A model generated the notes under the pieces. It saw only the letters and a program-made list of their open reading frames with translations, searched no databases and was not told the origin of the DNA. A stretch of DNA of 64,000 bases from the NCBI GenBank assembly GCA_963753435.1, contig CAVWCF010000001.1:736001-800000 (forward strand), in the 5' to 3' direction. Shown here piece after piece: positions 2,439-8,878 of the stretch (position 1 is its first letter; each line of letters opens with the position of its first letter). Source of the DNA: an uncultured Actinomycetota bacterium. Its GTDB lineage: Bacteria > Actinomycetota > Actinomycetes > CAVWCF01. The position numbers and the translations under genes were made by a program.

Positions 2439-3677
2439 TCAGGCCGAGATGAGCTCGGATCGCACCGCCGGGGCGGTGCGGGTGCCCCACCGGTTGTCCG
2501 TGAGCGATCCCAGCGCCCGTAGCCGGACGGGGATGAGCAGGGCCGCGTGCAGGAAGCCGTACAGGACGAAGAAGAAGAACTTCGGGTTGCGGGTTCGGTA
2601 CAGGGCGTAAAGGCAGTGCAGCACCGCCATGATCGCGATGACCGTGAAGTAGAGGACGAGCACCTCGGGCCCGTAGAGGAAGGCCCGCACAATCGTGGCT
2701 GTGACGGCGATGGTGAGCAGCAGCGGCAGGAGGGCCTGAATGAAGACCTCGGTCGCCATCACTCGGGAAAGCCGAGGCAGGAACGACAGGGTCCACAGCA
2801 GCTCGCGGTAGTAGGACTTGTTCCAGCGCAACTGCTGGGTCAAGTAGCTGCGAATGTTCGTTGGCGCGCTGGTGATGCAGTGCGCCTGCGGCACGAAGAC
2901 CGTGCGGAAGCCTTCACCAAGCACCAGGTTCGTCAGATGTCGATCATCGCCGAACGTGCACGGAACTCCGCGGAAGGTCTGGCTGACATACCGGGGCCAG
3001 ACCCGACCCAGCACGTCGCGCCGGTACACGGAGAACGGACCGGAACAGCAGAGCACCGCGCCGAACAAGGAGTGGGCGGCCCGCTCCTGGTTGAACGCGA
3101 CCCAGTAGCGCATGTCGATGAGCAGGGTGAGCAGGTTCGTCCGTGCGTTGGAAACGCGGACATCGCCGGTGACCGCGCCAACGCGGGCATCGGCGAACGG
3201 CTCAATGATCGTCCGGACCCCGTCCGGAGCGATCTGGGTGTCCGAGTCGATGGTCATGATCAGGTCGCCGCAGACGTGCGGCAGCGCAGCGCTTTGGGCG
3301 TGGCGCTTGCCCCGATTCACGTCCGGCAGGTGGATCGTCCAGCCCGGCCGAGCCGAGTACTCGCTAAGCAGCGGTATCAGGTCCTCGCGGTTCGGTGACA
3401 GGTCATCGACCACGTGCACCTCGATCACGCCCGGGTAGTCCTGTGCCAGCAAGGACTCAAAGCACAGCCGCAAGTCATCCGGGTGCTCGTTGTAGACGGG
3501 GATGATGACCGATACGACGGGCCAGGATCCGTGCCACTTCGGCCGTTGCAGCGTTCGCCGCCAGGATCGGTGCGCCATGCCGACCTGCAGGACGAAGTGC
3601 GACACCACCAACACGGTGTAGACGATCAACAGGCCGTCGAGGAAGTTCTTGACCACGGTGGCCAGTAGGCCGCTCAC
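2439..3677 (-). CDS. Processive GT2 glycosyltransferase, NodC / hyaluronan-synthase (HasA)-like
   Basis: IIPVYNE, VVDD, NRGKRHAQ, IDSDT, ERAAHSLFGAVLCCSGP, GDDRHLTN, QQLRWNKS and C-terminal WGTR; one N-terminal and several C-terminal TM segments. Confidence 0.9.
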   Translation of the reverse strand: MSGLLATVVKNFLDGLLIVYTVLVVSHFVLQVGMAHRSWRRTLQRPKWHGSWPVVSVIIPVYNEHPDDLRLCFESLLAQDYPGVIEVHVVDDLSPNREDLIPLLSEYSARPGWTIHLPDVNRGKRHAQSAALPHVCGDLIMTIDSDTQIAPDGVRTIIEPFADARVGAVTGDVRVSNARTNLLTLLIDMRYWVAFNQERAAHSLFGAVLCCSGPFSVYRRDVLGRVWPRYVSQTFRGVPCTFGDDRHLTNLVLGEGFRTVFVPQAHCITSAPTNIRSYLTQQLRWNKSYYRELLWTLSFLPRLSRVMATEVFIQALLPLLLTIAVTATIVRAFLYGPEVLVLYFTVIAIMAVLHCLYALYRTRNPKFFFFVLYGFLHAALLIPVRLRALGSLTDNRWGTRTAPAVRSELISA

Positions 3678-5347
3678 GACGCGATCCCTGAGGCGCTAAT
3701 CAGATCCCGCGCTCGCTGCAGCAGCGCTTCCTGCGGATCGGTATCACCGACGACAACGCTGGTGCCAATAACCCGACCACCAACGCTCAGTGGGCCCGAT
3801 TGCGAACTCGCCATCAGCACCACGCGCTCGTGTCGGATCACGTCGCCGTTTCGGAACGGCCACTCCCAGGAGAGGACGTGCCACGTGCTGCCGCTAGGAG
3901 TACGGAACTCGTAACGCTGGCCGGCGACCCCGCCCAGATCCAACTCCTCGTCGGCGAGCACCTCGTTGTCATGGAACTGGTAGCAGGACGCCAGCGAGTG
4001 TGTCTGCAGTGCCCGTAGGGAATCGGTTGTGATCGAGTCCATCCAGATCGTCGGTGTCGAGGCGGCTGTCGCGCCTACGCCCACCTGCGGCCGGAACTCA
4101 TACCGCATCCAGCGCGAGTCCCCGCCGAAGTAGGCGCGTGCCCATTCCTCTTCACCAAGAGGTGTCACGGACTCCGCGGTGGCCGACATCCGCTGCACTT
4201 GTTCGGCGGCGCTGACGGTGACCGGACCACCCGCGGCGGCACTGCCGCGCATCTGGCCGACGGTGGCGATGTTCACGGCCATGATCAAGGCAGCACCGGT
4301 TCCCAGCGCTAGGAGCCGCAGGACGAGTTGGCGCCGGTCCGGTGCCCCATCTCGCGGTAGCTGCGTGAAGAGGGGGTTGTCGCCGAACCCGGCCTCTCGG
4401 ATGGGCCGCCGAACCAGCCCCATCGGGCCGGCCAAAGCGAGCATGAGCAGGAAGGCCGCGTTCAGGGCCAGCAACCCGGCGACCGGGTGCACCAACCCGA
4501 TCGCGGCATCCTCACCGACAGCTCGACCGATCACCAGGATCGCGACGATTCGGACAACGTTGGCCATGAAGACGACCAACAGGCCCAGTGCGAACCAGGT
4601 GAGCCGGGCCCGGCCGGTGCCACGCAGAACGCTGAAGGATGCGGTGGCCACGACCGCGAAGGCCGCCATGCCCCCCATCCCCGAGCAGGCGCTGGAAACG
4701 ACGACATCGAAGGCGCCATCCGGGGCAGGCACCGTGAGCCGCAGGTCACCCTCCGCGGGCACCGGTGTGGCGATCGGGAAGACGTCCAGAACGCCGCGCA
4801 CGGCCACGCCGGTTGCATTGGTCAACCCGGTGCTGACCAGTTCCAGCAGCGCCGCGTAGGGGACGGGCCAGGCCAAGGCGAGCACGGCGATGGACGGGGC
4901 GAAAGCGAGCAGTGACCGCACCCCGAACAGGAGCGTGAAGGCCGCAACTGCGGTGAACGGCAGCAACAGCAGGTCGAAGCGCAGCACGGCGAAGAAGTTG
5001 CCGGTGCCATGCCAGGACAGCAGCAAGCCGCCGGAAACCAGCAGGGCGCACACGGCGGCCACGTACCAGTCCGCCTTGCCGTGGCGGGCGGTGGAGACGA
5101 AGGGGTGGCGGCGAATGGCCACAACGCTCAGCCCCACCGCGATCAACGGAACGATGGCCAGTTCCGCCAGGGGCGACTGGTACTGCCACGAAGCCAGCAT
5201 CGTCGCGAATGAAGCCGCGCCGGCCGCGGCCACGGCCACCCAGGCGAGCAGCAGGCGCAAGTGCGCCGGGATCAGGTGGGTCGCGGGCGGGTGCAGACTC
5301 AGCCCCGATCGCGGAGGCGTGATCGTGACGTCACGCATCACTGACAC
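3674..5347 (-). CDS. Exosortase/archaeosortase-family protein with C-terminal EpsI-like extracytoplasmic domain
   Basis: Multi-TM N-terminal region with the catalytic-type Cys (VSSACSGMG), Arg (ANVVRI) and His (LVHPVAG). C-terminal soluble domain has HSLASCY, like the EpsI H-x-P-x-x-C-Y motif. GGAGG RBS upstream. Confidence 0.85.
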   Translation of the reverse strand: MSVMRDVTITPPRSGLSLHPPATHLIPAHLRLLLAWVAVAAAGAASFATMLASWQYQSPLAELAIVPLIAVGLSVVAIRRHPFVSTARHGKADWYVAAVCALLVSGGLLLSWHGTGNFFAVLRFDLLLLPFTAVAAFTLLFGVRSLLAFAPSIAVLALAWPVPYAALLELVSTGLTNATGVAVRGVLDVFPIATPVPAEGDLRLTVPAPDGAFDVVVSSACSGMGGMAAFAVVATASFSVLRGTGRARLTWFALGLLVVFMANVVRIVAILVIGRAVGEDAAIGLVHPVAGLLALNAAFLLMLALAGPMGLVRRPIREAGFGDNPLFTQLPRDGAPDRRQLVLRLLALGTGAALIMAVNIATVGQMRGSAAAGGPVTVSAAEQVQRMSATAESVTPLGEEEWARAYFGGDSRWMRYEFRPQVGVGATAASTPTIWMDSITTDSLRALQTHSLASCYQFHDNEVLADEELDLGGVAGQRYEFRTPSGSTWHVLSWEWPFRNGDVIRHERVVLMASSQSGPLSVGGRVIGTSVVVGDTDPQEALLQRARDLISASGIAS

Positions 5348-5377
5348 CTCCGCAGGCCGCTACTCCGATCGGATGAA

Positions 5378-5405
5378 TCTTCGGCTCCTGAGGCACCTGA
5401 CTTGA
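5378..5405 (-). promoter_or_regulatory. Putative sigma-28 (FliA/WhiG)-type promoter for the exosortase-GT genes
   Basis: Minus strand TCAA-N16-GCCGAAGA versus the sigma-28/WhiG consensus TAAA-N15/16-GCCGATAA. Confidence 0.55.
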
Positions 5406-5408
5406 CTG

Positions 5409-5909
5409 TCAGATGGCTGATTGCGAACCGACTGCCCCGCGGCGCCGCAGCCCGAACCAGGCCGCGGCGGTGAGCAGCATCGAGGCGGGCAGCAGGATCG
5501 CGATCGGGGCTTCCGGAAGCTGCGCTGGCGGAGCACACGACGAGACGGTCACCCGGCCCGAGGTGTTGCTTGTGGCTGAGGTCACATCGTCTGCCCGGAC
5601 CCGCCACGCCTTGGCGTCCTTGTGTGCGGACACGTTCAATGCGTAGGCGTAGTCGGTAACCCCGGGCACGGTGGTGACCAGCTGCTGGACCGAGGTGTCC
5701 GACCAGCCGGAGTCCTGCCGCTGCAACGTAAGCACGATCTGCGACCCGGACGGGAAGTTACGCAGCGAGATGGTCCCGCTCAGGGAGTCACCCGCACAGC
5801 TTGCGCCCACGGAACGGACCTCTTTGGGTGCCGCCCAGGCGCTTGCCGGCGCGAACAGGGCGAGCGCAGCGACGATGCCAGCCAGGGCCAACGTGAACGC
5901 ACGTCGCAT
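5409..5909 (-). CDS. Secreted protein with PEP-CTERM-like C-terminal sorting signal (predicted exosortase substrate)
   Basis: ATG at 5909 with GGAGG 8 nt upstream. Signal peptide MRRAFTLALAGIVAALALFAPASAWA, Ser/Thr-rich body with two Cys, tail LPEAP-IAILLPASMLLTAAAWFGL-RRR. Confidence 0.8.
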   Translation of the reverse strand: MRRAFTLALAGIVAALALFAPASAWAAPKEVRSVGASCAGDSLSGTISLRNFPSGSQIVLTLQRQDSGWSDTSVQQLVTTVPGVTDYAYALNVSAHKDAKAWRVRADDVTSATSNTSGRVTVSSCAPPAQLPEAPIAILLPASMLLTAAAWFGLRRRGAVGSQSAI

Positions 5910-5991: not shown

Positions 5992-6033
5992 CGCGAGGAG
6001 GGCCCCGACCAGCAGGTCGGGGCCCTCCTCGCG
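5992..6033 (-). terminator. GC-rich hairpin downstream of rho (probable terminator)
   Basis: Perfect 19-bp stem CGCGAGGAGGGCCCCGACC-AGCA-GGTCGGGGCCCTCCTCGCG, 13 nt after the rho stop; U-tract weak. Confidence 0.75.
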
Positions 6034-6046
6034 GACAGGTGTGGTC

Positions 6047-7819
6047 TTACTCCTCGTCACCGTTCATTCCCGGCGTGGTCTGGGCCACGCTCATCAGGAA
6101 CTGACGGTTGGTGGGTGCCTCGCGCAGCTTGTTCAGCAGCAACTCAATGGCCTGCTGTGTCTCCAGTGCATGCAGCACGCGCCGCAGTTTCCAGGTGACC
6201 TTCAACTCGTCGGAGCCCATGAGGAGCTCTTCCTTGCGGGTGCCGGAGGAGTCCACATCCACGGCCGGGAAGATGCGCTTGTCGGCCAGCCGCCGGTCCA
6301 GCTTGAGCTCCATGTTTCCGGTGCCCTTGAACTCCTCGAAGATGACCTCGTCCATCTTTGACCCGGTCTCCACCAGCGCGGTGGCCAGCACCGTTAGGGA
6401 GCCACCGTTCTCGATGTTGCGGGCCGCACCGAAGAAGCGCTTGGGCGGGTACAGGGCGCTGGAGTCGACGCCACCGGACAGGATTCGCCCGGACGCGGGT
6501 GCCGACAGGTTGTAGGCCCGCCCCAGGCGGGTCATGGAGTCCAAAAGAACTACGACGTCGTGGCCCATCTCGACCAGCCGCTTGGCGCGTTCGATCGCCA
6601 ACTCGGCAACCGTGGTGTGGTCATCGGCAGGACGGTCGAAGGTCGAGGAGATGACCTCACCCTTGACGGTGCGCTGCATGTCGGTGACTTCTTCGGGACG
6701 CTCGTCCACGAGGACCACCATCAGGTGGACCTCCGGGTTGTTCTCGGTGATCGCGTTGGCGATGGACTGCAGCACCATCGTCTTGCCGGCCTTCGGGGGC
6801 GAGACGATCAGGCCGCGCTGACCCTTGCCGATCGGCGCCACGAGGTCGATGACTCGAGTGGTCAAGTCGCTGCTGGCCGTCTCCAACCGCAGCCGTTCGT
6901 TCGGGTACAGCGGCGTCAACTTGCTGAAGTCAACTCGGTCCCGGACCCCGTCCGGGGCCAGGCCGTTGACCGTGTCCACCCGGACGAGCGGGTTGAACTT
7001 CTCGCGGCGCTCACCCTCGCGCGGCTGTCGCACGGCCCCGGTGAGCGCATCGCCCTTGCGCAGCCCCATGCGGCGCACGAGGCCCATCGGGACATAGCAG
7101 TCGTCCGGGCCCGGCAGGTAGCCGCTGGTACGCAGGAATCCGTAGTTCTCCCGGATGTCGAGGATGCCGGCGACGGGCACCAGCACGTCGTCCTCGCCCA
7201 GAACTGGCTCATCGTCGCGACCTCGGCGGGCGCCCCGATCGCGGTCGCGGTCTCGGTCCCGACCCCGGTCGCGGTCACGGCCACGACGGCGCCGGCGGTT
7301 ACCGCGGTCGTCATCACGGGGGCCGCGGGAGTCGTCGTCGCGGGGGCCACGGGAGTCGTCGTCGCGGTCACGACCACGGTCCCGGTCGCCACGGTCGGAC
7401 TGGTTGCGGTCTGACTGGTTGCGGTCGGACTGGTTGCGGTCGGACTGGTTGCGGTCGCGGCCGGACTGCTGGCGGCCGGATTGCCCGTCGTTTCCAGCCT
7501 CGCGCTCACGTCCGCGCGGCCGGCTGGCCGCAGTCGACGGCTCATCGCCGGCAGGGGCGGACTCGCTGCTGCGGGAGTCGGTGCGGGCGGAGTCACGGCG
7601 TCCGGACTCGCTGCGCCCTGATTCGCTGCGCGCGGACTCGCTGCGACCAGAGTCCCGGCTGCCGCCGGCCTCGATGGCCGCAATCAGGTCGCCCTTGCGG
7701 AGCCGCTTGGCGCCAGCGATCCCCAGACCGCTGGCCATCTCCTGCAACTCGGGCAACTTCTTGCTGGACAGAGAGCCGCCGGACTTCGATCCGCGGGTCT
7801 CAGTATTGGTGTCGCTCAC
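6047..7819 (-). CDS. rho: Transcription termination factor Rho with N-terminal low-complexity insertion
   Basis: [41 protein letters not shown]. Confidence 0.98.
7307..7367. repeat. 24-bp tandem repeat (about 2.5 copies) encoding RDDDSRGP in the Rho insertion
   Basis: gtcgtcatcacgggggccgcggga / gtcgtcgtcgcgggggccacggga / gtcgtcgtcgcgg. Confidence 0.8.
7397..7456. repeat. 15-bp tandem repeat x4 encoding DRNQS in the Rho insertion
   Basis: (g/t)gactggttgcggtc repeated four times. Confidence 0.9.
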
Positions 7820-7980: not shown

Positions 7981-8878
7981 TCAGGCGTCCTCGACAACCG
8001 CCCCGCGTGCCGGGGAAAGCACCCGCGCCGCGACCCCTTCCGGTGCCGTTGCGGCAATCGCGTCCAACTCGCCGGCGGCAGTGCTCAGCACCAGCACAGT
8101 GGGGCCGGCCCCGGAGATGAACGCAGCATGCCCGGCCGATCGCAATCTCTGCACCAGCACCATCGATTCGGGGTACGCGCCGGTACGAGCGTCCTGGTGC
8201 AACCGGTCGGCAGTGGCCGCGAAGAGCAGACCAGGTTTGGCGGTCATGGCGATCGGCAGGAGAGCGGCCCGGGCCGCGTTGGCAGTGGCGGTCTCGAACG
8301 GGACCGCCGCGGGAAGCAGCGCACGCGCGACTTCGGTGGAAACCTCCACCGCTGGGATCAGCGCAAGCGCGCGGATCTGCTCGTGCACCGGCAAGGAAAT
8401 CGCCTCGCTTGCGCCGGCCTCGGACCACGCCAGGGTGAATCCGCCGAGAAGGCAGGCGGCCACGTTGTCCGGATGACCCTCCAACTCCGCCGCCAGCGGG
8501 AGAGCCGATTCCGGGGAGGTGTCCGCACCGGCCAAGTGCCGGGCCAGCAGGACGCCGCAGGTGATGGCCGCGGCGGAAGACCCGAGACCACGTCCGTGCG
8601 GGATCCGGTTGGTGGCCCGAAGCCGTAGGCCGGGGACGGCAAAGCCCAAATCCGCCGCTGTCCGTTGCAGGGTGGCCACAACCAGATGCCGATCGTCCAA
8701 CGGCACGGTGTCGGCGCCCTCGCCGACGACTCTCCACGTCAATCTGGTCCGCGATGACTTCGACCGCCACCTCGTCGACGAGGTCCAGCGCCAGTCCGGC
8801 TACGTCGAAACCCGGGCCCAGGTTCGCGCTGGTCGCCGGGGCGCGGACGACAGCGCGGGCGCCGATCGGCAGGTCCAC
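7981..8878 (-). CDS. thrB: Homoserine kinase, interrupted by a +1 frameshift near 8731
   Basis: N-terminal PATSANLGPGFD is in one frame from GTG 8878; IPHGRGLGSS, EGHPDNVA and ISGAGPT are in another. Junction reads GAC GTG GAG [A] GTC GTC GGC GAG. Confidence 0.92.

Follow-up and report, generated by a model that had tools for sequence, protein, structure and literature searches.

Exosortases accompanied by a membrane-bound glycosyltransferase of family 2 (GT2) are already known from monoderm bacteria, and what exosortases attach proteins to is an open question (bioRxiv 10.1101/2023.06.07.544157). The cassette considered here is found at positions 2439-5909 of a 64,000-nucleotide stretch of DNA (the window) from the genome of an uncultured actinobacterium, which has a size of 2.17 Mb, a GC content of 68% and a completeness of 98%. 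It codes, in this order, for a small tagged protein, a long-form exosortase and a GT2. On the reading that we favour, to which we assign a probability of about 0.45 as a whole, the exosortase would sort the small protein, the GT2 would make a polymer that contains uronic acid, and the anchored protein would help to retain this polymer at the surface.

Among the described systems, XrtG/Firmicu-CTERM of the Firmicutes (TIGR03110, TIGR03111) has, like the window, a monoderm host, the order target, exosortase and GT2, and one dedicated target (PMC12854382), and XrtG-like loci (L049 and L052) occur in the window's own phylum. However, XrtG has about 200 residues and no outer domain (as taken from the NCBIfam names and PMC12854382), whereas the window exosortase is long and carries one. 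The scores on the XrtG models are below the cut-offs for both the exosortase (20.2 against 102.75) and the glycosyltransferase (67.3 against 363.95), and the tag and the GT2 lineage also differ. The combination of an actinobacterial exosortase with a membrane GT2 is represented by XrtS, XrtP, XrtR and the XrtP-associated glycosyltransferase (NF033767, NF012139, NF012138 and NF053846). One actinobacterial genome, G197, passes both XrtS (194 against 145) and NF053846 (628.8 against 520), which means that the pair is already curated in actinobacteria. These enzymes have 155-200 residues and the glycosyltransferase gene upstream, and the window GT2 reaches only 15 against 520 on NF053846. The XrtA (EpsH)-EpsI/PEP-CTERM system shares with the window a full-length multi-helix exosortase domain with a C-terminal outer domain, and a tag of the Pro-Glu-x-Pro type that abuts the helix and is combined with an Arg cluster. 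The window differs from it by its score on TIGR03109 (46.3 against 208), the lack of a match to PF11984 or a PEP-CTERM model, the monoderm host, the absence of an adjoining Wzy-type exopolysaccharide locus and the single target. The original prediction of an undescribed actinobacterial system has thus to be narrowed: the long-form exosortase subfamily, its tag and the hyaluronan-type GT2 partner are new, while a monoderm exosortase with a GT2 is not new as a kind. No description of the cassette was found in a literature search whose coverage mostly excluded subscription journals.

The exosortase gene (3674-5347, minus strand) codes for 557 residues as called. Its start is probably the ATG at 5338, giving 554 residues, because GGAGG is located 8 nt upstream of it and the nearest two homologues have this same length; the residue numbering used here is counted from 5347. 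By its profile matches the product is a member of the exosortase/archaeosortase family, as originally proposed, since it passes PF09721 (67.6 against a cut-off of 25.7) and TIGR04178 (47.4 against 23). About nine hydrophobic helices bear Cys221, Arg266 and His287, which are invariant in all 19 aligned relatives and are present in 140, 148 and 142, respectively, of the 150 listed profile matches. The expectation that the enzyme falls outside the characterised subfamilies was borne out, as none of the named Xrt models (A, B, D, G, K, P, R, S, T, V, W, X, Y) is passed. The best score is that for XrtA, given above together with XrtG; XrtV gives 44.8 against 313, and for XrtP, XrtR and XrtS the window exosortase is not listed at E≤1. 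Nine relatives were also scanned, and none of them passes a named Xrt model.

The long form constitutes an unnamed family with 435 representatives at E≤1e-30 in a profile search. Its occurrence is sporadic: of the 401 genomes sampled from the class, nine carry it (ten matched, one of which, G229, has a short form), and three further carriers are present among the examined PF09721 matches of the phylum sample. XrtP is over its cut-off in 0 of 201 class genomes. A divergent long-form homologue on a Rhodococcus plasmid (L077:9064-10533), with neither a tag gene nor a GT2 in its neighbourhood, lacks any NCBIfam match and is possibly inactive, and in genome G273 (L020:7871-10248) the exosortase and target genes appear frameshifted. 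In a genome of the window's phylum, an archaeosortase A match over cut-off (L048:2-622; 112.9 against 75) lies on a 2.6-kb contig and may reflect contamination or a transfer.

The exosortase was originally described as a fusion with an EpsI-like domain. Whereas the exosortase part stands, the EpsI part does not at the level of hidden Markov models: PF11984 (EpsI) matches none of the 19 family members, nor the exosortase locus in the genome. What remains is a C-terminal domain (residues ~375-555) with a CYxFH motif and a predicted Mog1p/PsbP-like fold. The model has a predicted local distance difference test value (pLDDT) of 82.7, the PsbP-like match has a Z score of 8.4 and a root-mean-square deviation of 3.4 over 113 aligned residues, and the top eight rows of the fold comparison are all Mog1p/PsbP-like. 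Language-model neighbours at 0.88 include 16-17% DUF3485 members, and homology to EpsI is treated as a weak lead only. Foldseek at E≤0.001 gave no match for the exosortase model or for the target model, and no solved exosortase was among the results.

The tagged protein is encoded at 5409-5909 (minus strand) by an open reading frame of 166 residues. It has a signal-like N-terminus, as judged from hydropathy, and ends with LPEAP, a hydrophobic helix (residues 136-154) and RRR. Residues ~27-128 are predicted to form an immunoglobulin (Ig)-like beta-sandwich, with Cys38 and Cys125 and 25% Ser/Thr. The best Z score is 10.2, with many near-ties, and the fold is generic. The protein has no Pfam match and no NCBIfam match over cut-off, and its language-model neighbours are all below 0.9. 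Homologues with about 30% identity are located beside related exosortases and have in common the two cysteines and a CAPxxx[VL]PE[AV]P end; one related target bears a choice-of-anchor P domain.

An alignment of 13 tails defines the tag (5409-5519, minus strand) as a [VL]PE[AV]P-CTERM signal consisting of the motif, a transmembrane helix and an Arg cluster. Motif, helix, basic cluster, a signal peptide (by hydropathy) and a gene position beside the enzyme are the features of a dedicated tripartite signal (bioRxiv 10.1101/2023.06.07.544157), and all of them are found here. Among the tails of the genome's open reading frames the tag is the sole match (E 1.6e-17, the next being 0.11, with its own tail in the model). 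This genome, nearly complete, contains a single exosortase and a single tag, which agrees with the suggestion that the enzyme has one neighbouring cognate. No curated sorting-signal model reaches its cut-off with the window target or with any of 18 related target proteins, and PF07589 (PEP-CTERM) has no match in the genome.

It is important to consider that the small protein could be no exosortase substrate at all, and instead simply stay in the membrane by its C-terminal anchor, or be handled by a sortase. The genome does contain two sortases and several LPXTG/LAXTG-type proteins, and the absence of a curated model for the tag would fit such a scenario. However, the motif lacks TG and no spacer separates it from the helix, as in exosortase signals (bioRxiv 10.1101/2023.06.07.544157), and the distribution of the tag among genomes follows that of the exosortase. 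We consider this scenario very unlikely. There is little doubt in our view that the LPEAP tag is a substrate of the neighbouring exosortase, and cleavage of the tag by this enzyme is likely.

In 16 of the 19 long-form loci whose upstream DNA is readable (the window among them), a tagged gene lies directly upstream of the exosortase in the same orientation; it is divergent or one gene away in two and absent in one. A profile of the 13 tails, the window's included and all from outside the class search's own matches, was then compared with 18 candidates scored per genome. It gives E<1e-5 in 5 of the 401 genomes, four of which are among the nine carriers of the long exosortase. Matches at E≤0.05, found in 203 of the 401 genomes, were dismissed as noise. 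One genome, G148 (L019, L120), has one long exosortase and 16 tagged proteins at E≤1e-4, many of 500-1000 residues and both clustered and spread genome-wide, which means that the family also works in a one-to-many fashion.

Downstream of the exosortase, a membrane GT2 is found in 17 of the 19 long-form loci with readable downstream DNA, the two without it being L043 and L077. The stop codon of the exosortase and the start codon of the glycosyltransferase overlap in all ten related junctions inspected. The predicted three-gene order is thus conserved, while the type of GT2 varies, and because the order recurs in other genomes the cassette is not a product of chance. The window-type GT2 is present in nine loci (the window, L055, L001, L002, L003, L057, L058, L022 and L016), of which L055 is 89% identical to the window and not independent, and for L055 and L058 the enzyme is known from N-terminal fragments. 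This type spans one Gaiellaceae genome and several actinomycete genomes. Other GT2 types are found in eight loci, including L010 from the unpublished genome G032; where the enzyme is CelA-like, the next gene codes for a membrane protein, which in one case matches PMT_2 weakly.

These exchanges would be expected if the GT2 were a passenger in a mobile island of surface genes, making an exopolysaccharide that stays free and is not physically connected to the sorted protein. The two loci without a GT2 point in the same direction, as do close relatives of the enzyme that occur without an exosortase in G203 and on Lactococcus and Enterococcus plasmids. Against this, whenever the enzyme is exchanged it is another membrane GT2, again with overlapping codons, that takes its place, and both class genomes with a glycosyltransferase identity ≥60% have it beside an exosortase. 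A passenger role is thus rather improbable, and the GT2 very probably serves the same process as the exosortase.

Two of these loci show further arrangements. In L043 (6667-11292) genes resembling those of a phosphate ABC transporter come directly after the long-form exosortase in place of a GT2. In L022 (613-2316) the GT2 carries a fused response-regulator receiver domain, and genes for a response regulator and a kinase-like protein come next. PF00072 is carried by 9 of the 120 listed GT2 homologues, and such fusions suggest that a synthase is under phosphorylation control.

The GT2 gene (2439-3677, minus strand, 412 residues) has its start within the exosortase stop, GTGA at 3674-3677 being common to both. 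Its product contains D144/D146, R190, R199, GDDR (243-246), QQLRW (281-285) followed by NKS, and WGTR (397-400). In the hyaluronan synthase CvHAS, R247 and R256 are reported to be critical for the coordination of glucuronic acid (GlcA) (PMC12346304), with R287 and R296 as the Xenopus equivalents (PMC11750622). The CvHAS pair aligns to R190 and R199 of the window, a one-residue offset being fixed from the DxD motif. R190, R199, S212, GDDR, N250, N286, S288 and WGTR are present in all 120 listed homologues and K287 in 117, and HasA of Bacillus tropicus matches the window GT2 at these residues. The GlcA-coordinating Arg pair, GDDR, QxxRW and the WGTR gating loop of the Class I hyaluronan synthases (CvHAS, Xenopus HAS1, Bacillus HasA) are therefore all found in the window enzyme, which is predicted to be, like them, a small single-protein synthase. 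Among proteins of solved structure, it is most similar to hyaluronan synthases, a viral one (E 4e-48) and that of Xenopus (E 4e-44). Compared to HasA, it has about 40% identity, forms a separate clade and has no hasB or hasC adjoining. At least 120 GT2 clusters exist at ≥55% identity, and their automatic names are split between hyaluronan synthase and NodC.

The NodC proteins constitute the nearest sampled clade, and a second option is that the GT2 is NodC-like or chitin-synthase-like and makes oligomers or a polymer of N-acetylglucosamine (GlcNAc). NodC is the top NCBIfam model (TIGR04242), plasmid NodC matches are 38-43% identical, and two actinobacterial NodC-type proteins have His355 as well. 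In addition, the trees place the cassette clade beside NodC, with a support of 99/98 in the first tree (long-branch row included) and a value of 98 in the SH-like approximate likelihood ratio test (SH-aLRT) in the second. However, the score of 345.8 is under the NodC cut-off of 550, and the residues differ. All five rhizobial NodC sequences have E190, C212, GEDR, I250, ARS and L398, and the window GT2 departs from NodC at 190, 212, 244, 250, 286, 287 and 398, that is, at 7 of the 10 positions compared, with R for E at 190, GDDR for GEDR, WNKS for WARS and WGTR for WLSR. The common grouping with NodC is nested inside enzymes with hyaluronan-type residues, and a tree in which the two are not sisters is not rejected by the approximately unbiased (AU) test (p=0.079). 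No nod genes are located nearby: nodB and nodIJ are not neighbours, neither nodA nor nodB adjoins the cassette (NodB was not searched genome-wide), and NodA (PF02474) was not found genome-wide in a search without a positive control.

Regarding the trees, it should be noted that streptococcal, viral and vertebrate synthases, the type 3 synthase and chitin synthases were left out and that two rows have an odd composition. The first tree is without the partial rows L015 and L016, the second without L015, L016, L067 (long branch) and L071, and the AU test without seven more. NodC-type genes (EY, GEDR) from three actinobacterial genomes of one family (L064, L065 and L066) are basal to NodC, and two of them keep WGSR and His355 like the cassette GT2.

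Taken together, the residues favour the hyaluronan-synthase type over the NodC type for this protein, and synthesis of GlcNAc chains appears unlikely. The original assignment to a NodC/hyaluronan-synthase-like maker of a GlcNAc-containing polymer is in this way shifted towards a uronic-acid, hyaluronan-type product and away from GlcNAc oligomers of the NodC type. From the sequence, the balance leans towards a product that contains uronic acid. True hyaluronan is a more tentative proposal, and the remaining odds fall to a cellubiuronan-like or other polymer. Two genes of the PF03721 uridine diphosphate (UDP)-sugar dehydrogenase family over cut-off are present elsewhere in the genome, and the best plasmid relative of the GT2 (45%) adjoins a nucleotide-sugar dehydrogenase. 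On Lactococcus and Enterococcus plasmids (L053:1105-3522), such a dehydrogenase and a GT2 with the same residue set are found near insertion sequence elements; this pair, annotated as glycosyltransferase only, is a candidate mobile hasAB-like pair.

Several observations weigh against the reading that we favour, in addition to the best NCBIfam match and the tree position, both of which involve NodC. R199 as well as K124 and R284, the Lys and Arg that sandwich the carboxylate in hyaluronan synthases (PMC12987647), are also present in NodC and hence not diagnostic. The position of CvHAS C231 is not kept, being Val or Ile in the window clade, and the cassette has no dehydrogenase gene, whereas in bacterial hasAB a UDP-glucose dehydrogenase gene belongs to the same operon. 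Moreover, the related pneumococcal type 3 synthase uses glucose instead of GlcNAc (PMC12220298), which would caution against over-reading the residues. The GT2 slot is exchangeable, with CelA-like and other PF13632 enzymes in eight loci, and L059 pairs a homologue of the window target with a GT2 that is just 26% identical, which means that the target is not restricted to a single polymer. As to the tag, the fifth strong tail match (G036, unpublished) comes from a genome without an exosortase match; only 73 bp separate it from the end of its contig, and it may represent another kind of signal. Five exosortase carriers have weak (E 1e-3 to 1e-2; G026, G032 and G344) or no (G136 and G377) tail matches, three of them on broken contigs. 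The generic Ig-like fold match gives no sign of glycan binding, and the catalytic steps, the cleavage and the binding are all inferred.

The proposed mechanism can be outlined as follows. The target would be exported and held by its C-terminal helix, after which Cys221 would cut it at or near LPEAP. The cleaved protein would then be transferred to an anchor in the membrane, probably a lipid as in the archaeosortase case, where the anchor depends on lipid synthesis by PssA/PssD (PMC7157517). By this analogy, the odds that the anchor is a lipid are about even. The coupled GT2 would make and extrude a hyaluronan-like polysaccharide containing uronic acid, and the anchored Ig-like protein would help to retain it non-covalently; capsules made by synthases are otherwise non-covalently retained or released (PMC12220298). 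That the target protein binds the polymer is the more doubtful part, with a chance somewhat below even.

The main competing explanation is that the GT2 makes the acceptor itself, a lipid-linked or nascent glycan that would receive the cleaved protein covalently to give a protein-glycan conjugate. The GT2 follows the exosortase in the great majority of loci whatever the target, even in G148 with its 16 targets. The same order is found in XrtG-like loci, GT2 coupling is seen also in short XrtP/S/R-like cassettes, and a lipid serves as the primer of the related type 3 synthase of pneumococci (PMC12220298). On the other hand, the dependence of the archaeosortase anchor on PssA/PssD speaks against it, and several unrelated glycans as acceptors would require a promiscuous exosortase site. 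The cassette contains no deacetylase gene. Hyaluronan has no free amine, which also counts against a role as the acceptor. We regard this explanation as unlikely, albeit the most serious of the alternatives, and retain sorting to a membrane anchor with non-covalent retention of the polymer. A more specific variant is a long shot: an actinobacterial hyaluronan or close analogue, made by a synthase from a NodC-ancestral lineage, with the target covalently coupled to the polymer or to its lipid primer. If true, it would amount to a three-gene bacterial proteoglycan-like system, and the exosortase acceptor would have a name.

At the locus itself, the three co-oriented minus-strand genes and the GTGA overlap were confirmed from the open reading frames, with rho at 6047-7819 on one side and rpmE on the other. 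That rho and rpmE are usual neighbours also held, as rpmE directly follows rho in four of five relatives tested, including both same-family genomes (confirmed by blastn for those two); the fifth has no rpmE within 1.5 kb of rho. Since these four have rho and then rpmE with no cassette, the cassette is an insertion. By composition it is not recent foreign DNA, because the third-position GC content of its genes (0.83-0.88) matches that of the flanking genes (0.81-0.87). No relative was found among viral contigs. Between the rho stop and the cassette, a 19-bp perfect hairpin without a U-tract is located at 5992-6033 (minus strand; ViennaRNA fold), a possible transcript boundary. It was missed by the terminator scan, and the promoter and terminator scans gave nothing. 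In four RNA libraries, short contigs cover portions of each of the three genes, and one spans the junction between exosortase and GT2; these were not counted as transcription.

The stretch before rpmE is a recurrent site for exosortase cassettes of three kinds, namely the long form with a window-type GT2 (L022, L055), the long form with another GT2 (L010, unpublished G032) and the short form (L021), the last being an unnamed cassette likewise located between rho and rpmE. Beyond rho, the frame of the homoserine kinase gene thrB (~7981-8870, minus strand) is split near 8732 by an apparent one-base insertion. In the 89%-identical relative L055 it is in a single frame, and the split looks like an assembly error or a pseudogene.

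Finally, with one enzyme, one putative substrate of 166 residues and one synthase within 3.5 kb, the system could be rebuilt in a laboratory host, where the acceptor question can be asked directly. The GT2 clade offers candidate synthases of the hyaluronan type that come from non-pathogens, and if its position beside NodC holds, it provides a test of how few residues separate the synthesis of a uronate polymer from that of the Nod-factor backbone. The long-form exosortase and its tag merit curated models. For the organisms themselves, the residue patterns suggest that free-living actinobacteria likely coat themselves with a hyaluronan-like polymer, which the sorted protein may hold in place.

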